Shown: positions 1,470-39,232 of the stretch, one piece after another
How the letters are laid out: each line of letters starts with the position of its first letter
Numbering within the stretch: the first letter of the stretch is position 1
Origin: Candidatus Collierbacteria bacterium
Lineage (GTDB): Bacteria; Patescibacteriota; Microgenomatia; UBA1400; JACPES01
DNA: 64,000 nt
Direction: 5' to 3'
Assembly (NCBI GenBank): GCA_016183365.1
Contig: JACPES010000002.1
Span: forward strand, 12,779-76,778
Notes under the pieces: model-generated
What the model was told of the DNA's origin: nothing
The model's database searches: none
What the model saw: the letters and a program-made list of their open reading frames with translations, nothing else
Position numbers and translations under genes: made by a program

Positions 1470-1844
1470 TTATTTCAATTCCACAGTAGCTCCTGCAGCT
1501 TCGAGCTTTTTCTTAGCTTCTTCAGCTACGTCCTTTTTAACATTCTCGAGTAACACCGCGTTGCCTTTTTCAGTCAAGTCTTTGGCTTCTTTTAAGCCCA
1601 AATCCGGTTTGATTTCCCGGACTGCCTTAATAACGCCGATTTTGTTGGCTCCCGCAGCCTTCAGAATGACCGTGAATTCGGTCTTCTCTTCAACGGGTGC
1701 AGCGGCAGCCGCCGGAGCAGCAACCATAGCCATAGGAGCGGCGGAAACGCCGAATTTTTCCTCTAAAGCCTTAACCAATTCTGAAACTTCCAGGACTGTT
1801 AATTTTTCAATTTCGTCAACGATTTTTTGCAATTTTTCTGTCAT
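1470..1844 (-). CDS. rplL: 50S ribosomal protein L7/L12
   Basis: 124 aa; [33 protein letters not shown], an Ala/Pro hinge, and a C-terminal ...[40 protein letters not shown]. Confidence 0.9.
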
Positions 1845-1858
1845 CTAAAATCACCCCC

Positions 1859-2440
1859 TTAATTTTTATTTTTTCCAATCACATCCAACGCGTACACTAA
1901 TTTTTGAATATTTCCATTCAGCGTCCTGACCAGTTCATAAGCCGGCCCCTGCATCTGTTGCATAAGTTTTATCAAAAGATCTGTTTTACTCGGAAGTTTG
2001 GCCAATTCCATTACCTGTTCAACCGATAGGGGAGAATTGCCCAATAGTCCGCCTTTAATTACCGGTTTTTCATTGATTTTGGAAAATTCAGCCAAAACTT
2101 TAATCGGCAGAACTTCATCCTGATAGGCGAATAAAACGGCTGTCGGTCCCTGAAGAAATTCTGAATTCTGAATACTGAATACTGAATGTATTGTTGACTG
2201 TTTTTCTGATTCATCATTCGGAATTCGGTATTCAGTATTCGGTATTTTCTCTCCGAACGCCAGCGAGAGCAACGTATTCTTGGCGATTACCAATTCGCCC
2301 CCGGTCGAGATTACCCTTTCCCTCAATTGGGATTGGCCCAAAGCGTTTAATCCGGAATTGTCGGTAAACACGACGGATTTAGCTTTCGCGACCCGATCCT
2401 TTAAATCGGCTAATTGTTGAATATTGCGTTTAGATGGCAT
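1859..2440 (-). CDS. rplJ: 50S ribosomal protein L10, carrying an in-frame palindromic insertion
   Basis: The N-terminal KRNIQQLADLKDRVAKAKSVVFTDNSGLN is L10-like and the gene sits immediately upstream of rplL. The insertion spans 2155-2248. Confidence 0.8.
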   Translation of the reverse strand: MPSKRNIQQLADLKDRVAKAKSVVFTDNSGLNALGQSQLRERVISTGGELVIAKNTLLSLAFGEKIPNTEYRIPNDESEKQSTIHSVFSIQNSEFLQGPTAVLFAYQDEVLPIKVLAEFSKINEKPVIKGGLLGNSPLSVEQVMELAKLPSKTDLLIKLMQQMQGPAYELVRTLNGNIQKLVYALDVIGKNKN

Positions 2441-2697
2441 ACGATAAATAAATGGTTACAATGGTCAAAAAATTATAACCATTTTAGCCATTAGCGAGTG
2501 CTTTCGACGAGCGACAACCATTCAGCCATTTATTTTATTGCTTTTGTATTCCTACCGTCAGTCTTACCCAAGAGGTAGCGCTCACGGTCTTTGGAACTTA
2601 AAGAAAGTATATCACACTTTGATTTCTACTTTCACCCCCGGTTCCCCGCCAAAAACTCGTTTAACTCGCATTTAGGCGGGTAGGCATAGTGGCGCAG
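2441..2697 (-). promoter_or_regulatory. rplJ leader region, a possible L10 autoregulatory leader
   Basis: A 257-nt untranslated spacer between rplA and rplJ that contains hairpins. This position corresponds to the L10 leader in bacteria. Confidence 0.3.
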
Positions 2698-3030
2698 TTA
2701 TTTAATGTCTTCAATGTTTACTTTAATTCCGGGTCCCATAGTGGCACAAACAACCGTTTTGGTGATTTTAACCGAGGCGCCAACGGCGGTGAGAATTTCC
2801 GTCAGTTTCTCCGACAGAATTTCCGGTTTTTCCGATTGTTTGCCTAACACGGCATGCAAAAGCGGGGTTTTGCGTTCGGATTGAAATTTTCCGAATTTAC
2901 CGGGTTTATTTAATACCAAATGCAGCTCAATCTTGCCGTCGAATTTATTTGTGGCGGTTTGTTGAGCCAGCGTAATGGCTTCGAGAGGAGGATAGAGTTT
3001 GGCGCGGTCAACAGTAATTTGTTGGTTCAT
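2698..3030 (-). CDS. rplA: 50S ribosomal protein L1, minimal form that appears to lack domain II
   Basis: 110 aa. The N-terminus (DRAKLYPPLEAITLAQQTATNKFDGKIELHLVLN) matches the L1 N-terminus. The C-terminus (PLLHAVLGK...LTEILTAV...KTVVCATMGPGIKV) matches the L1 C-terminus. The roughly 100 aa middle domain is absent. Confidence 0.6.
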   Translation of the reverse strand: MNQQITVDRAKLYPPLEAITLAQQTATNKFDGKIELHLVLNKPGKFGKFQSERKTPLLHAVLGKQSEKPEILSEKLTEILTAVGASVKITKTVVCATMGPGIKVNIEDIK

Positions 3031-3039
3031 TATAAGATT

Positions 3040-3200
3040 AATCCGGTTATCAGTTTTCGGTTGTCAGTTATCGGTTCTAAGTTTGTCTTGCGAAGCAAGA
3101 TCCTGCTTTGCAGGACCGGTTTTCGGTTTGCCGGCCTTGAAACCGATAAACTGAAAACCGATTAACCTGAAACTGAAAACCAAAAAACAGAAAACTGATA
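3040..3200. repeat. palindromic element in the rplK-rplA spacer
   Basis: atcagttttcggttgtcagttatcggtt ... aaccgataaactgaaaaccgattaacctgaaactgaaaacc are inverted arms around cttgcgaagcaagatcctgctttgcagg. Confidence 0.5.
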
Positions 3201-3204
3201 ACAG

Positions 3205-3627
3205 TTATACTATCTTCACCCCCATACTTCTTGCCGTCCCCATTACCGTCTTCATTGCGGAATCCAAGTTTTTAGTATTCATATCCTGCATCTTAAGCTT
3301 GGTGATTTCTTCCAGTTGAGATTTAGTCAGAGTTCCGACGGTTTCTTTGCCAGCGATTTTAGCTCCGATTTTTATTTTTAAAGCCTGTTTGATCATTTCG
3401 GAAACCGGCGGCAGTTTGGTGACGAAATCAAACGACCGGTCTTCATAGATCGTGATTACCGCCGGAATAATCTGGCCTTTTTTATCTTTGGTTTTTTCAT
3501 TATATGTCTGACAGAATTGCATGATGTTGACTCCGTGCTGGCCCAAAGAGGGGCCGACCGGGGGAGCGGGATTGGCCGCGCCGGCGGGGAGATTTAGTTT
3601 TAGGATTACTTTTATTTTCTTAGCCAT
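3205..3627 (-). CDS. rplK: 50S ribosomal protein L11
   Basis: MAKKIKVILKLNLPAGAANPAPPVGPSLGQHGVNIMQFCQTYN is the canonical L11 N-terminus. Confidence 0.9.
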   Translation of the reverse strand: MAKKIKVILKLNLPAGAANPAPPVGPSLGQHGVNIMQFCQTYNEKTKDKKGQIIPAVITIYEDRSFDFVTKLPPVSEMIKQALKIKIGAKIAGKETVGTLTKSQLEEITKLKMQDMNTKNLDSAMKTVMGTARSMGVKIV

Positions 3628-3631
3628 AGTT

Positions 3632-3778
3632 AGAAATTTTCAATTTTCAATTCTCAATTTTCAATGAATTTTCAATTTCACAATTTACAATTACGTTTGA
3701 AAATTTAGTCATTTATTCAATGTAAATTGATTGAAAATTTAAAATTGTAAATTGTAAATTCTAGATCTTCGCTCGATT
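3632..3778. repeat. AT-rich palindromic repeat, family B (caatttacaat / attgtaaattgtaaatt arms)
   Basis: Shares ttttcaattctcaatttacaat ... ttgaaaatt ... aaattgtaaattgtaaatt with 30655-30812. Confidence 0.6.
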
Positions 3779-3780
3779 TC

Positions 3781-4413
3781 TCATATCTTCGCTACTTGTA
3801 GGAAATCAAGCTCGACCGGTGTTTCCCGGCCAAAAATCGAAACCAAGATTTTGACTTTACCCTTGGTTTCGTCGATGTCGGAAATACTCCCCAAAAATTC
3901 GGCAAACGGACCTTCGATGACTTTAACCGCTTCACCGACGGTAAAGCTGGCCTTAAAGCTCGGGGCGGCTTGGGCGGAATATTTTTTAATCGTGTCAACT
4001 TCGGTTTGGGGGATCGGAGTCGGATTCTTGCCAATGCCGACAAAGCCGGTGATACCCCGGGTATTTCTGACCGCCGCCCAGGATTCGTCGTCCATAATCA
4101 TCCGGATTAAAAGATATCCGGGGAATAATTTTTCCTTGTACTGGATTTTTTTGCCGCGGAAGATTTTAATTTTATCCTGGACCGGAACCATGACTTCGTG
4201 AACTTTGGTTTCTAATTTCAGGCCGTTAATCCTGATTCCCAGCTGTTGGGCGACTTTTTCTTCGTGGCCGGAATAGGTGTGGGCGACGTACCATTTAGCC
4301 GATGGATCGCGCTCCTCCAGAATAACCACGTGGTACAAGGCGTCCTCGGCCTTTTTGGCCTCGGTTTTAATTTGATCTTCGGCGGATGGTTGGGTAATCG
4401 ATTGATCGGACAT
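3781..4413 (-). CDS. nusG: transcription termination/antitermination factor NusG
   Basis: NGN domain (YVAHTYSGHEEKV) and C-terminal KOW (GEAVKVIEGPFAEFLGSISDIDETKGKVKILVSIFGRETPVELDF). The ORF extends to 4494, but that extension lies inside a MITE copy, so the start at Met 4413 is preferred. Confidence 0.8.
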   Translation of the reverse strand: MSDQSITQPSAEDQIKTEAKKAEDALYHVVILEERDPSAKWYVAHTYSGHEEKVAQQLGIRINGLKLETKVHEVMVPVQDKIKIFRGKKIQYKEKLFPGYLLIRMIMDDESWAAVRNTRGITGFVGIGKNPTPIPQTEVDTIKKYSAQAAPSFKASFTVGEAVKVIEGPFAEFLGSISDIDETKGKVKILVSIFGRETPVELDFLQVAKI

Positions 4414-4420
4414 ACTTAAA

Positions 4421-4565
4421 TTAGATTTTTTGAAGATAGATTTTTTTGAAATTTTAGATCTTGATATATTTGATTTCTTGAATTCTTGATTCAAGATATC
4501 AAGTTATCAATAATTCAAAATCAAAGATTTCCACCTTCCATCTTCAAGATATCGATTTTTATTGA
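4421..4565. mobile_element. MITE-like palindromic repeat, family A, copy 1 (cttgaagat ... atcttcaagat termini)
   Basis: Terminal inverted repeats and an internal ttgatttcttgaattcttgattcaagatatcaag. Four more copies at 6703-6852, 12329-12472, 30468-30622 and 36915-37050. Confidence 0.7.
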
Positions 4566-4570
4566 ACCTC

Positions 4571-4756
4571 TTATTTTACCAGAAAAGTCAGCAAATAGGT
4601 AAACAACCAGTCCAAGGCGCCGATATAAATGCCGACAATGGCGGATGCGGCCACCACAATTACCGTTAACCTGACGGTTTTTTCCCGGCTGGGCCAGTCG
4701 ACTTTTTTCAATTCCTCCCGGACTTCGCCAATAAATTTAAGCGGTGTCATATCCAA
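4571..4756 (-). CDS. secE: preprotein translocase subunit SecE
   Basis: 61 aa with a single C-terminal TM helix (VRLTVIVVAASAIVGIYIGALDW), immediately upstream of nusG. Confidence 0.75.
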   Translation of the reverse strand: MDMTPLKFIGEVREELKKVDWPSREKTVRLTVIVVAASAIVGIYIGALDWLFTYLLTFLVK

Positions 4757-4810
4757 CGAAAAGTATAGCAGAAATCTGTTTACTGTTGTTGATTATTTCT
4801 TAATTGATAT

Positions 4811-4858
4811 ATCAATCAATTGAAGGTCTGACCTTCAATGTAGCCATATATCAATCAC
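4811..4858. repeat. REP-like palindromic element (attgaaggtctgaccttcaat + gtagccatatatcaatca)
   Basis: Perfect palindrome ttgaaggtctgaccttcaa. Copies at 5633-5690, 11104-11146 and, in frame inside mrdA, at 34126-34164. Two copies flank the transposase gene at 4862-5560. Confidence 0.75.
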
Positions 4859-4861
4859 TAT

Positions 4862-5560
4862 TTATTCAAGCCGGAGTTTTTTGGTCAATAGTTCGCTTCT
4901 CGGCAGGCAGATCCCAAGCTTGGTATACTCCCAAAATTCATTTTTGTTATTCAGAAGCGACATGACTGGTTCGGTATTTATCCATGGTTCGGGATGGTTT
5001 AAATATGATGACAGGCTACTCCACTGATATTTAGGCAAGTTTTGTTCATTCCATCTAGAAAATTCGCCATTGGCGGGGTTTACGTGAACATAGCGAACGG
5101 CTTGAAGTAATTGTTCATCATGAATAATGGCAACGGATTTGTATTTAGATTCAAATAGTCGTCCTTTGCGTTTTTCGACTTTATTGAAGTACATGGTAAA
5201 GGCTGTTCCCAGTCTTTGCATAAATTTAGCTATGGCAGTTTTCTTATCTTCAGATTCTCCCAAAACTAAATGGAAATGATTATTCATCAATATTAAGGCT
5301 ACAATATCCAAAATCGGAGGCCCGAATTCTTCCTCGGCTTTGCCAATCTTTTCCGGCGTAATTTTATCTCGTTTTAGCCAATCATCAAGTACCGCGATAG
5401 AAGGGGATTTTAACAATCTGGACAGTCTCAAAGTGGTAATAAACCGCCGGCGGTGGTTATCGTTCAGGAAAATCACTCGTTTATCAACTCCGCGATTATA
5501 AACATGAGAAAAGAACCTAACCGGAGTCATCGGAGTCATAATCAATATAACAATATCCAA
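4862..5560 (-). CDS. IS200-like Y1 tyrosine transposase (RAYT-like) flanked by REP copies
   Basis: HVYNRGVDKRVIF ... NNHFHLVL ... GRLFESKYKSVAIIHDEQLLQAVRYVHVNP. Paralog of 633-1355. Confidence 0.8.
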   Translation of the reverse strand: MDIVILIMTPMTPVRFFSHVYNRGVDKRVIFLNDNHRRRFITTLRLSRLLKSPSIAVLDDWLKRDKITPEKIGKAEEEFGPPILDIVALILMNNHFHLVLGESEDKKTAIAKFMQRLGTAFTMYFNKVEKRKGRLFESKYKSVAIIHDEQLLQAVRYVHVNPANGEFSRWNEQNLPKYQWSSLSSYLNHPEPWINTEPVMSLLNNKNEFWEYTKLGICLPRSELLTKKLRLE

Positions 5561-25860: not shown

Positions 25861-28032
25861 TCAATATTCGGAATTCAGTATTTTTATCGCTTCCGCGTAA
25901 TCCGGTTTCAATTCCAAGGCTTGGCGGTAAAGATTTTCGGCCTTGGATTTATCGTTCAATTCTCCATACATCCGGCCTAATAAATAGTATCCCCGGGGGT
26001 CGGTGGGGGATAAATCAACGGCTTTTTGAGCCAGTTTCAAGGCTTCATCAGTCAGATTTGGATCAATCTCCTTCATCAAAAATTCCATCTGGGTTTGAGT
26101 CCTGATAAAAGTCAAATTATATTTTGATTGGGCGGAAACGACTTTAAAATTTTTTACGGCTTCATTTTTTATCTCAACGGCGCGGGTTTCATTGTTGTTG
26201 GCCCAAGCCGAAATTGCGGCTACAGCCAATGATTCTGCCAGTTCGTTACGGAAAACCGGTTCATTGGGGGCTAAATTAACCGCTTGAGAGAGTGGTTCTA
26301 AGGCTTCCGGAATATATCCGGCTGAATAATATTGTCGGCCGAGATTGTATTTAAGATCAGCCTGAAACCGATTAAATATTCCGGAAATTACCCCAAAAGT
26401 AATAATGGCTATGATTGTTAGTAAAAAATACTTCCACCATAGCAATTTTATAAAGGAGTCTCCTTTAAGGATCTTCCCTTCTGTCGTGAAGACAACTGTC
26501 AAGCTCATAAATAAATATCTATAAGTCTCGGTGGTAACTGTGGAGAAACCGAAAAAGTTGACGGTTTCAACCCCGAGCAGGGCCGCCAGAATTGCGACAA
26601 GAACGTCATTGCGAGGAGTCCCGCCTTTGGCGGGACGACGTGGCAATCCCGATGGGATCGCCACGCTTCGCCCGTCAGACTGGCTTGCTCGCGATGACCT
26701 AACTATCCAAACTCCAAACCATCCCAACAACAGTAAATGTGTCCCTAATCCAAACAATCCCGTATTCGCCGCCAAATTCAGCCATTCATTATGAGCCTTG
26801 TTATATAAAAAATTCCATTCCGAGGTTTGGTTTGCTTCTTTGTGCCGGACTTGCCAGTAGGTCAGGCCGAAAGTCTCCGGTCCGGTTCCAAAAATTGGAT
26901 TCCTCTTGGCAATTTCCCAAGCTCCGTTCCAAACTATGCGGCGGATATCTCCGGATTCGGTGCCGCCTAGCTCCGACTTGCGGAGATTAATTGCTAATTG
27001 TTGATTGCTAATTACTGATTGTTCAGATTGATTTTTTACCAGCTGAATTGTTTTGAAAAACCAATCTCTGGCGGGATTATTAGTGATGAAAACCAAAATC
27101 AAGATGATTGAATGAATAAAAACAAAGGATTTGAGATTTTTGCTTTTTGCTTTTTGTTTATTGTTTATTGCGAACACGGTGAGCCAAAACACAACATCCA
27201 TTACTGCAAAACCAAGAAGTCCCGAGCGGGATTTTGTGAAGAGGAGGGCAGTAAAAAAAACAAAAAACAAAAAACAAAAAACAATCATATTTTTATTACC
27301 GTTCTTTGCTTTTTGCTCTTTGCTTTTTGTCATGAGCATCCATGTAAGCGGGATGATCATGACGAGGAACCCCGCTAGCCAGTTCGGCTGTCCCTGGGTA
27401 GAAAAAACTCGGGTTGCGACGTCCTGAATCCAGAAATCGCGGTCAATCCCGAAATGTTGAAAGATGGCGTAAAGGCTGACGATAGTGGCGGAAGAGAGAA
27501 TAGCAAATATCGGAACACTCGGAATACTCCGAAAACCAGAAAAATCAGAGAATCGGAGATTCAGAGAGCCCGAAGCTCCGGTCTTCTGATTATCAGATTT
27601 TCTGACCTTTCGGCTCTCCGAGTTTTCCGAGTTTTCCGAAATATTCGCCACAAATGCGTAATACAGCACCGTATAGCTAATCGTGCTCACAAGCCCTCCG
27701 TTAAATCTTCCGTACCAGCCAAACCACGAAATATGATGATCTATACTATATATAGTACTGACAACCTGTGACAGTAAAAATAGCAGAATGGGAATATCCA
27801 GCGGGGTCCAGCGCAAAATAATCCGGCCCGCCAAAATCATTCTTATTGTCCAGACGGCTATTATCAGTGTAGTCATTAAATACACAAACAGCATTTTGGG
27901 AAATTCAAACACTTCGCTGCTTGGAATCCAAAAGATTAAGGGCAAAAAGAAAAATAAAGTTATAAACAGGGCGCGAATGGTTAGTTGCAGGGTTCTATCA
28001 AGCCGGATAAACATTAAGTTTGATTTTAGCAA
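25861..28032 (-). CDS. O-antigen ligase/Wzy-like polytopic membrane protein with C-terminal TPR repeats
   Basis: Many TM helices, a Wzy_C-like region (NGAWEIAKRNPIFGTGPETFG) and C-terminal TPR repeats (GYYLLGRMYGELNDKSKAENLYRQALELKP). It carries several inserted repeat elements. Confidence 0.55.
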   Translation of the reverse strand: MLKSNLMFIRLDRTLQLTIRALFITLFFFLPLIFWIPSSEVFEFPKMLFVYLMTTLIIAVWTIRMILAGRIILRWTPLDIPILLFLLSQVVSTIYSIDHHISWFGWYGRFNGGLVSTISYTVLYYAFVANISENSENSESRKVRKSDNQKTGASGSLNLRFSDFSGFRSIPSVPIFAILSSATIVSLYAIFQHFGIDRDFWIQDVATRVFSTQGQPNWLAGFLVMIIPLTWMLMTKSKEQKAKNGNKNMIVFCFLFFVFFTALLFTKSRSGLLGFAVMDVVFWLTVFAINNKQKAKSKNLKSFVFIHSIILILVFITNNPARDWFFKTIQLVKNQSEQSVISNQQLAINLRKSELGGTESGDIRRIVWNGAWEIAKRNPIFGTGPETFGLTYWQVRHKEANQTSEWNFLYNKAHNEWLNLAANTGLFGLGTHLLLLGWFGVWIVRSSRASQSDGRSVAIPSGLPRRPAKGGTPRNDVLVAILAALLGVETVNFFGFSTVTTETYRYLFMSLTVVFTTEGKILKGDSFIKLLWWKYFLLTIIAIITFGVISGIFNRFQADLKYNLGRQYYSAGYIPEALEPLSQAVNLAPNEPVFRNELAESLAVAAISAWANNNETRAVEIKNEAVKNFKVVSAQSKYNLTFIRTQTQMEFLMKEIDPNLTDEALKLAQKAVDLSPTDPRGYYLLGRMYGELNDKSKAENLYRQALELKPDYAEAIKILNSEY

Positions 28033-37066: not shown

Positions 37067-39139
37067 ATGAAACTCGTTCTCGTTGAGTCTCCCACCAAAG
37101 CCCGGACGCTAACTAAATTTTTAGGCGTAGATTTTAGAGTTGAAGCCACGATGGGCCATTTGCGGGATTTGCCTAAAAATAAAATCGGTTTTTCGGTTGA
37201 ATCCGAAGATGGCAAAACTAAATTTTTGCCCGAGTATGAGGTGGCGGCGGAGAAAAAATCCAAAGTTGGGGATTTAATAACGGCCGCCCGCGGGGTAGAA
37301 GGGATTATTTTGGCGACTGATCCTGATCGGGAGGGAGAGGCGATTGCCTGGCATGTTGCCGCCCTCTTGGACGGCGAAAAGACGAAGGAATTTTCCCGGG
37401 TGGTTTTTCATCAAATTACTAAGGACGCGATTCTGAAAGCAATGAAGCATCCGCGGAAATTGGATATGCATTTAGTTGACGCCCAACAGGCCAGAAGGGT
37501 TTTGGACAGGATGGTGGGCTATCAATTGTCGCCGTTATTGTGGAGAAAAATCCGTCGCGGACTATCGGCCGGCCGGGTCCAAAGCGTGGCAGTTAGGATG
37601 GTGGTAGAGCGGGAAAGAGAAATTGAAGTTTTTGTGCCGGTTGAATTTTGGGAAGTATTCGTAAAAGTACAAGAAAGTACAAGAAGGTACAAAAATGTAC
37701 AAGAAGGCGAATTTGTTGTGAAGTTGATTGAGGTTGATGGAAACAAGGGAGATTTATCGAAGAAAGAACAAGTTGATCCGATTGTTGATGATTTGGAAAA
37801 AGCTGAATACCAAGTTGAAAAAGTTGACAAAACCGAAGTCAAAAAACGTTCTCTGGCACCGTTTACCACCAGTACTTTACAGCAGGCGGCATCTAGGTTA
37901 TTCCGCTGGAGCGGCAAAAAAACCATGAATATCGCTCAAAGATTATATGAGCATGGTTTTATCACATATCACCGTACCGATTCGACTAATTTGGCTAAAG
38001 AAGCGGTGGAGATCGTCCGTCAATTAATTATTGCCAAATTCGGCCTGGAATATTTGCCGCCCGAATCAAGAATTTTTAAAACCAAAAACACTTTGGCCCA
38101 AGAAGCCCATGAGGCCATCAGGCCGACCAATCCTGACGATTTTTATACTCCTCATAAATTGGAACAGGAAGTCGGGTTTATCGCCAAAGACGCCTTTCGC
38201 CTTTATCAATTGATATGGAAAAAATTTGTCGCCAGTCAAATGGCCGATCAGGTTTATGACCAAACTACTATTAAAGTTATAGCTCAAGGAGTCAAAAAAT
38301 ATGGCCTGAAGGCGGTGGGAATGGTGGAAAAGTTTGAGGGATGGAAGAAGTTATACCAGTCGTCAGTTTTCGGTAATCGGTTGTCGGTTATGGGCCAGTC
38401 GGTCAATCGGTTAACCGGTCAACTGACAACCGATCAACAATTACCCCAAGTCTCCGTCGGCGATTCACTCCAACTTATTAAAATAGACCCGCAACAAAAT
38501 TTTACCCAACCCCCTGGCCGGTTTACCGAGGCGATGTTAATTAAATTATTGGAAGAAAAGGGAATCGGCCGGCCATCAACTTACGCTCCGATTGTCAGTA
38601 CGATTCAAGACAGGGGGTATGTGGAAAAAATGGAAGGAAGATTTCATCCTCTGCCGGTGGGGTTGGTGGTAAATGATTTTTTGGTGGAACATTTTCCGGC
38701 GATTGTGGATTATGATTTTACTAAAAATTTGGAGGAGGATTTCGATAAAATAGCCGAAAATAAAAGAGGCTGGAATGATGTTTTGGGAGAGTTTTATTAT
38801 CCGTTTACGGAAAGATTGAAAAAGGTTGAAACAGACGCGGAACGCAAAAAAATTCCGGCAGTGGAAACCGGAGAAGCTTGTCTGAAATGCGGCGAAGGTC
38901 GGCAGGTAATCAGAACCGGAAAATTCGGAAAGTTTTTATCCTGCTCGCGGTTTCCGAAATGTGATTGGAAAAATAAATACGTGGAAAAATCCGGAGTTAA
39001 ATGCCCGTTATGCCATAACGGCGACGTAATAGTCAAGAAAACAAAAAAGGGCCGCCATTTTTTCGGCTGCTCCAATTATCCCGATTGTAAATTCGCCAGC
39101 TGGCGAAAGCCGGATGGAAAGGCCGGAAGTGAGAAATGA
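37067..39139 (+). CDS. topA: DNA topoisomerase I
   Basis: MKLVLVESPTKARTL ... TOPRIM ... YHRTDS active-site region ... C-terminal CxxC zinc ribbons. Confidence 0.9.
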   Translation: MKLVLVESPTKARTLTKFLGVDFRVEATMGHLRDLPKNKIGFSVESEDGKTKFLPEYEVAAEKKSKVGDLITAARGVEGIILATDPDREGEAIAWHVAALLDGEKTKEFSRVVFHQITKDAILKAMKHPRKLDMHLVDAQQARRVLDRMVGYQLSPLLWRKIRRGLSAGRVQSVAVRMVVEREREIEVFVPVEFWEVFVKVQESTRRYKNVQEGEFVVKLIEVDGNKGDLSKKEQVDPIVDDLEKAEYQVEKVDKTEVKKRSLAPFTTSTLQQAASRLFRWSGKKTMNIAQRLYEHGFITYHRTDSTNLAKEAVEIVRQLIIAKFGLEYLPPESRIFKTKNTLAQEAHEAIRPTNPDDFYTPHKLEQEVGFIAKDAFRLYQLIWKKFVASQMADQVYDQTTIKVIAQGVKKYGLKAVGMVEKFEGWKKLYQSSVFGNRLSVMGQSVNRLTGQLTTDQQLPQVSVGDSLQLIKIDPQQNFTQPPGRFTEAMLIKLLEEKGIGRPSTYAPIVSTIQDRGYVEKMEGRFHPLPVGLVVNDFLVEHFPAIVDYDFTKNLEEDFDKIAENKRGWNDVLGEFYYPFTERLKKVETDAERKKIPAVETGEACLKCGEGRQVIRTGKFGKFLSCSRFPKCDWKNKYVEKSGVKCPLCHNGDVIVKKTKKGRHFFGCSNYPDCKFASWRKPDGKAGSEK

Positions 39140-39232
39140 GAAATGTGAAGCTGGATAATGAAACGGAATATTTTGAAGTGAGATTTAGATAATCAAACCT
39201 CACATTTCGCACTTCGCATTTCTTATTTTTAG
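39112..39232 (+). terminator. rho-independent terminator after topA
   Basis: gaaatgagaaatgtgaagc ... cctcacatttcgcacttcgcatttcttattttt is a long hairpin followed by a T tract. Confidence 0.5.

Follow-up and report, generated by a model that had tools for sequence, protein, structure and literature searches.

The rplA gene of a Collierbacteria organism, from the candidate phyla radiation (CPR), encodes a minimal form of ribosomal protein uL1. L1 is the protein component of the mobile L1 stalk, the part of the ribosome that escorts deacylated tRNA on its way out. In the 64-kb stretch of DNA that we analyzed (hereafter the window), its place is taken by an open reading frame (ORF) for a protein of only 110 residues, which we call short L1. 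We consider it likely that this is the genuine and only uL1 of the organism, cut by an internal deletion to the RNA-binding domain I, and that it probably still binds helices H76-H77 of 23S rRNA. Sequence comparison, profile-profile alignment, predicted fold, synteny and conservation agree with the initial annotation, which had proposed an L1 reduced to one domain. The precedent for such a minimal uL1 is an engineered domain I of Thermus thermophilus L1; a natural one is undescribed in the literature that we searched.

Gene position, homology and predicted fold

The ORF runs from ATG to TAA, and its start is the first start codon past an in-frame stop. It lies on the minus strand in the order secE-nusG-rplK-ORF-rplJ-rplL (Table 1). 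Both the ORF calls and the Pfam matches of the neighbors bear out the earlier proposal that this is the L1 position between rplK and rplJ. In E. coli the same slot is occupied by the 234-aa rplA. An identical protein is deposited in NCBI as 'hypothetical protein HYU89_00225 [Candidatus Collierbacteria bacterium]'.

Table 1. Features of the rplA region, in positions of the window
Feature	Position	Strand	Basis or remark
rplA, uL1 reduced to domain I	2698..3030	-	110 aa + stop; ORF, two-half L1 match, hhalign, AlphaFold2, dN/dS
rplA codons 1-48, N-terminal half of domain I	2887..3030	-	aligned with E. coli L1 10-56
rplA codons 49-110 + stop, C-terminal half of domain I	2698..2886	-	aligned with E. 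coli 163-230
Junction of codons 48/49, site of missing E. coli 57-162	nt 2886/2887	-	alignment
Phe30 of short L1 (= E. coli Phe38)	2941-2943	-	alignment
Thr97-Met98-Gly99 of short L1 (= T217-M218-G219)	2734-2742	-	alignment
rplK-rplA spacer, 174 nt, not coding for L1	3031..3204	-	no domain II signal in any frame
rplK (uL11), upstream neighbor	3205..3627	-	Pfam Ribosomal_L11_N + Ribosomal_L11
rplJ (uL10), downstream neighbor	1859..2440	-	Pfam Ribosomal_L10
rplL (bL12)	1470..1844	-	Pfam Ribosomal_L12_N + Ribosomal_L12
nusG	3781..4494	-	Pfam NusG + KOW
secE	4571-4756	-	strong Pfam match
rplA-rplJ spacer with extended -10-like box and leader-like RNA	2441..2697	-	motif conserved in 8 loci

Judged by sequence comparison, the similarity of the short L1 to L1 is far above chance. 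Its termini had been matched with the two ends of L1, and the alignments bear this out half by half: residues 6-42 correspond to L1 ~14-50 and residues 49-105 to L1 ~160-225, and the C-terminus ends in ...KTVVCATMGPGIKV, as first described. The family model TIGR01169 is also matched in two stretches (residues 6-41 on model positions 12-47, and residues 53-105 on the C-terminal end of the model). The score is 36.5 bits, which misses the curated threshold of 216.3, and Pfam PF00687 (Ribosomal_L1) gives no match to the short L1 at E <= 1. The protein falls below the curated cutoffs because half of the family model is missing. A phmmer search of PDB sequences returned L1 chains only, matched in two pieces (E 9e-7), except that the engineered 137-aa T. 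thermophilus domain I is matched continuously, query residues 7-105 on chain residues 14-134. Profile-profile alignment, which had been suggested as a check, gave a probability of 99.9% and an E-value of 2e-32 when the profile of 39 homologues was compared by hhalign with that of 16 full-length L1 proteins; the alignment contains a single long gap, spanning the hairpin and domain II. An HMM of full-length CPR L1, run on all six frames of the window, matched this ORF alone (model positions 3-45 and 131-189 of 190, E 4e-26).

Structure prediction, another of the suggested checks, points the same way. The AlphaFold2 model (39-sequence alignment, mean pLDDT 90, pTM 0.79) consists of a single alpha/beta domain with helix 15-24, strands 33-40 and 57-64, helix 69-84 and strands 89-96 and 101-104. 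The top Foldseek matches in PDB are 2OUM, 2OV7 and 2VPL, all representing the isolated first domain of T. thermophilus L1 (E 1e-8, probability 1.00, TMq 0.77), and the next ones are L1 domain I in many ribosome structures. According to the model, the domain I fold is formed by the N- and C-terminal segments alone.

The E. coli L1 residues without a counterpart in the short L1 are 2-9, 57-162 (106 aa), 201-207 and 231-234. The largest of these segments comprises a beta-hairpin (57-70, ...VRG..LPHGTG, also given as ...NVRG..LPHGTG) and all of domain II. The initial annotation had put the loss at a middle domain of roughly 100 aa; domain II is indeed absent, but the loss is wider and extends to the domain I beta-hairpin, the 8-residue N-terminal tail and the 201-207 loop. 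Because these three elements are also missing, the short L1 has 110 residues and not the 137 of the engineered Thermus domain I (1-67 joined to 159-228; 2OUM, 2OV7, 2VPL; PMC2175363). Both proteins join N- and C-terminal segments without domain II, and both keep the T-M-G and Phe recognition residues. Unlike the engineered construct, the window protein is natural and conserved, and its RNA binding is a prediction. With canonical bacterial uL1 (PF00687, TIGR01169 rplA_bact, ~230 aa) it shares gene position, domain I and the RNA-binding motif; it differs in lacking the two-domain architecture, in which domain II is inserted in domain I, in scoring under the curated thresholds and in being 'hypothetical' in NCBI.

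The N-terminal half of domain I retains helix 15-24, strand 33-40 and a conserved turn, GKFGK. The beta-sheet face is also kept, and a conserved basic E-R/K-K segment (residues 52-54) is found at the position of Arg165/Lys168. In the 39 homologues, F30, G32, I34, H37, G44 and G47 are invariant, while T97-M98-G99 is invariant or nearly so, with M98 and G99 among the invariant positions. Phe37/38 and the Thr217-Met218-Gly219 triad are what we take to be the RNA-recognition module of L1 domain I; PDB entries include rRNA complexes of the T217, M218 and G219 mutants of Thermus L1.

Conservation and integrity of the gene

The length of L1 in relatives, which the initial annotation had recommended checking, is uniform. 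In a large protein database the short L1 is represented by 57 clusters with 57-100% identity, all of them 74-131 aa long (54/57 at 103-131 aa) and drawn from NCBI, JGI, ENA and Logan assemblies. The order nusG-rplK-short L1-rplJ-rplL is identical in more than 10 independent contigs from these four sources; the scan of genome contigs, with very specific peptide patterns, contributed one locus and the metagenome scan 11. The reading frame is intact in every relative. Pairwise dN/dS values against relatives are 0.05-0.21 for rplA, compared with 0.04-0.12 for L11 (rplK) and 0.12-0.28 for L10 (rplJ); synonymous sites are saturated relative to the more distant clade. Taken together, conservation, gene order and low dN/dS describe an intact, conserved gene under purifying selection.

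We also built an HMM of domain II from 78 CPR L1 proteins; it found nothing in any frame of the entire 64-kb window, six frames searched (best E 2.3). Therefore, neither the spacer nor any other frame encodes the missing domain. The upstream spacer had been described as 174 nt long and unable to encode domain II; the length is exact (3031-3204), and the absence of HMM signal in any frame confirms the rest. The same search, together with the uniform length of the homologues, rules out a frameshift or a split gene. A frameshift or a collapsed region that removed the middle of a normal rplA might be suspected, given that errors are plain to see in one related contig (L004), where the L11 and L10 genes are broken. 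However, such an error would have to have produced the same size range in 57 of 57 clusters from four assembly sources and the same gene order in all the independent contigs, with no domain II remnant in any frame of the window, a dN/dS typical of selection and a confidently predicted single-domain fold. The artefact reading is effectively refuted, and frameshift, assembly gap and pseudogene can be set aside.

A different concern is that the ORF may be an extra copy, while another L1 of full length, or domain II as a gene of its own, lies elsewhere. Our search for another L1 covered the 64 kb of the window, in which there is no second L1 and no domain II. In addition, no Collierbacteria-named protein occurs among the 120 best relatives of full-length Microgenomates L1, and the short gene sits in the canonical rplA slot in all relatives. 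We regard a paralogue as very unlikely and the short L1 as most likely the uL1 of this organism.

NCBI taxonomy places Collierbacteria within the Microgenomates group of Patescibacteria. Microgenomates have reportedly lost helix 78, bL9 and Der while keeping rplA, and their uL1 has an N-terminal extension and internal deletions of 20-40 aa (PMC9297842, PMC12641178). Neither of these two papers describes a loss of the whole domain II, and we found no report of one in the literature searched. The CPR bacteria reported to lack L1 are a Parcubacteria/Paceibacteria subgroup in which helix 78 is kept (Brown et al. 2015, as cited in PMC9297842). Both lines have a reduced L1 stalk, but in one the gene is gone and helix 78 kept, whereas in Collierbacteria a minimal gene is kept and helix 78 is reported lost.

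This setting does not favor the initial idea that a single-domain L1 is an intermediate toward L1 loss, as the L1-less lineages are elsewhere in CPR and the short L1 is under purifying selection. It might still be argued that the gene is a pseudogene in progress, heading for the complete loss known from L1-less Parcubacteria: some CPR lineages are entirely without rplA, and Microgenomates have reportedly lost the stalk partners H78 and bL9. Such decay is highly improbable, however, for a gene under purifying selection comparable to that on L10, with invariant RNA-binding residues, an undisrupted frame in all relatives and a family conserved over lineages with saturated synonymous sites. Purifying selection across such divergences therefore indicates a stable end state on a parallel route and not a decaying intermediate. 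Within the stalk reduction seen in Microgenomates, the short L1 represents a stable and minimal form.

Spacers and flanking elements of the operon

The rplK-rplA spacer contains a long hairpin (~3046-3202) of short repeat units, with inverted repeats I10 and I14 and an RNA fold of -65 kcal/mol (z = -7.6). In relatives, the corresponding spacers measure from -4 to 174 nt and have the same hairpin build with different sequence. We considered an L1-binding mRNA mimic in the 174-nt spacer, but it is unsupported, as it is the build and not the sequence that relatives share. Long imperfect hairpins of ~6-7 nt tandem units are also present at 3635-3760 (nusG-rplK spacer), 2139-2264, 27140-27284, 39126-39222 and 4789-4869, and the 'CAGTTATCAGTTTTCGG' hairpin type of the window recurs upstream of rplJ in a distant locus, L001 (~4580-4660). 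In the nusG-rplK spacer, too, relatives have hairpins built alike but unrelated in sequence. The tandem-unit hairpins suggest a recurrent or mobile element family. The hairpin at 2139-2264 (50-nt arms) lies in frame inside rplJ, on the minus strand, and encodes an insert of ~26 aa that is absent from E. coli L10 and reads …IPNTEYRIPN…HSVFSIQNSEF…. Both arm-encoded peptide motifs are kept in L005, L011, L012 and L016 and are lacking or different in L007, L014 and L001.

Upstream of rplJ, an extended -10-like box, TGTGATATACT, is found at 2607-2618 on the minus strand. The leader that comes next (~2549-2596; …AAGACCGUGAG…GUAAGACUGACGG…) is conserved in 8/8 loci examined and has a small consensus structure with one compensatory pair. 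It may be an L10(L12)n autoregulatory leader. Rfam, at both gathering and permissive thresholds, gave no ribosomal leader in the operon and only spurious hairpin matches to microRNA precursors. The box and the leader together mark rplA as the last gene of an rplKA unit. The rplA-rplJ spacer of the relatives L005 (4343-4810), L007 and L011 harbors a gene of ~155 aa on the opposite strand. The window has instead, at 2620-2697, only a conserved stretch of ~70 nt just past the L1 stop codon, shared with L007, which may be either a remnant of the end of that gene or a terminator region.

Two further observations concern reading frames. In L001 (4308-4457), and also in L014 and L016 but not in the window, a conserved basic ORF of 49 aa, MSSHNKPADVQRKVEYFRQLRNRTFQLKKPQFNLPKFVTTPRRPGMRGK, overlaps the end of the short L1 in the +1 frame; these loci belong to the clade with 60-63% L1 identity, and the ORF has no match in Pfam. 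The ribosomal operon of the window is flanked by two mutually similar ORFs on the minus strand, 633-1355 (240 aa) and 4862-5560 (232 aa), which carry the motif ...NHFHFLIK/NHFHLVL.... At corresponding positions in L005 and L024, ORFs match Pfam Y1_Tnp, and the flanking ORFs may be relatives of IS200/REP-associated-type tyrosine transposases.

Domain II loss in CPR bacteria and the probable role of the short L1

A profile search of 1.84 billion representative sequences returned 456 proteins at E <= 0.001, and we classified the best 150 of them by parsing local domains. Classification by hmmalign was abandoned because it mis-assigned the N-terminal halves of short proteins. Among the best 150, a domain-II-sized insert is present in 89 (median 86 extra residues) and a short insert of 21-55 aa in 10. 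The two halves of domain I are adjacent, without domain II, in 40; these proteins have a median length of 190 aa and an N-terminal extension with a median of 78 aa. The remaining 11 are fragments. Proteins of the Collierbacteria type are minimal, having neither domain II nor extension, and similar to them are a 133-aa Berkelbacteria protein and a 133-aa protein labeled 'Parcubacteria'.

For three other domain-II-less types we inspected the contigs, and all lie directly upstream of rplJ-rplL. Domain-II-less uL1 proteins of other CPR lineages (such as P0059/P0210 of 190-194 aa, P0063 of 215 aa and the Berkelbacteria P0154 of 133 aa) resemble the Collierbacteria form in the adjacent halves of domain I and in having rplJ-rplL next door. 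Unlike it, most have an N-terminal extension of 40-120 aa, and some keep the LPH hairpin. Full-length Microgenomates-type uL1 (~260-280 aa; Tsurumaki et al. 2022, PMC9297842) has an N-terminal extension of 40-130 aa and internal deletions of 20-40 aa. It comes from the same superphylum as the window protein and from the lineage of helix 78/bL9 loss, and its domain I is related (KTEKKAPLxH motif); however, it keeps a domain II of ~82 residues, whereas the window protein has neither domain II nor extension.

Whether domain II was lost once or repeatedly was judged from the identities of neighboring genes. The 190-194-aa type shares 57-63% identity with full-length Microgenomates L1 of ~270 aa. 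Its neighbors are also closer to those of an organism with full-length L1 than to those of Collierbacteria (71% versus 64-67% for L11, and 70% versus 52-55% for NusG), which points to several independent deletions. A neighbor-joining tree, built from 108 columns of domain I, implies 26 state changes and is too crude to count losses. As far as these identities go, the losses in related bacteria appear to be several and independent. Our tentative count, which may or may not prove correct, is that domain II was deleted at least three or four times in CPR: in Collierbacteria, in at least two other Microgenomates lines and in Berkelbacteria.

Ribosome incorporation, RNA binding and the functional consequences of the short L1 are what we infer from better known L1 proteins. 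In the Thermus 70S ribosome with E-site tRNA, L1 relies mainly on domain I to contact H76 and H77, H78 is held by two residues of the N-terminal tail, Lys6 and Arg8, and the Arg53-Ser55 loop touches the tRNA T-loop; Arg165 and Lys168 lie near the tRNA elbow, while domain II contributes Arg130 and Arg135, which make contact with A2169, H77 and the tRNA elbow, including G19 of the tRNA (PMC3602588). The N-terminal tail, the Arg53-Ser55 loop and domain II are lost from the short L1. The protein would remain the stalk protein and clamp the H76-H77 junction through the conserved surface of domain I, formed by Phe30, Glu35, His37 and Thr97-Met98-Gly99. With the short L1 as a small clamp, most of the work of the stalk would fall to its rRNA platform, and so would most of the contact with the tRNA elbow. 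Such an arrangement agrees with reports that Microgenomates have lost helix 78, bL9 and Der. The 64-kb window contains no rRNA gene.

Regulation may be affected as well. Tishchenko et al. (2007) removed residues 68-158 from Thermus L1 and found that the isolated domain I keeps its structure and binds specific 23S rRNA and mRNA fragments. Compared with intact L1, its affinity for mRNA is similar and that for rRNA much lower, and feedback regulation depends on the additional contacts with rRNA that domain II provides (PMC2175363). It is domain II that normally makes L1 bind rRNA more strongly than mRNA, so in the organism studied here the classical L1 feedback loop has probably been weakened or lost. 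The apparently loose coupling of rplK and rplA (174-nt spacer, stable hairpin) is in line with a weakened loop. The weaker rRNA binding of isolated domain I also means that stable association of the short L1 with the ribosome is not guaranteed. The protein could accordingly have been kept as a translational repressor or RNA chaperone, with the stalk working without a protein: isolated domain I binds mRNA like intact L1 and rRNA much more weakly, L1 proteins are reported to have RNA chaperone activity (PMC1920258), and the gene is flanked by long structured spacers. We consider such a role unlikely, since the ribosomal operon position is kept and the spacers contain no conserved L1-site mimic, their sequences being wholly different between relatives. 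Moreover, the conserved residues recognize a motif shared by rRNA and mRNA, which makes rRNA binding the simplest expectation. The reading of the short L1 as a stalk protein is preferred.

A natural L1 with domain I alone means that evolution has repeated, throughout a lineage and probably several times, the truncation that proved domain I sufficient for specific RNA recognition. It provides a natural test case for the part played by domain II in translocation, E-site release and autoregulation, and it adds a further step to the shrinkage of CPR ribosomes, beside the loss of helix 78, bL9 and Der. Surveys of rplA presence or absence may misreport such genes, which fall under Pfam and TIGRFAM thresholds and are deposited as 'hypothetical protein'. 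If the multiple losses are true, surveys with curated HMMs would miscount these genomes. Furthermore, a simplified stalk would be able to do without protein contacts to the tRNA elbow, and these organisms would have lost the gap between rRNA and mRNA affinity on which classical L1 autoregulation is based.
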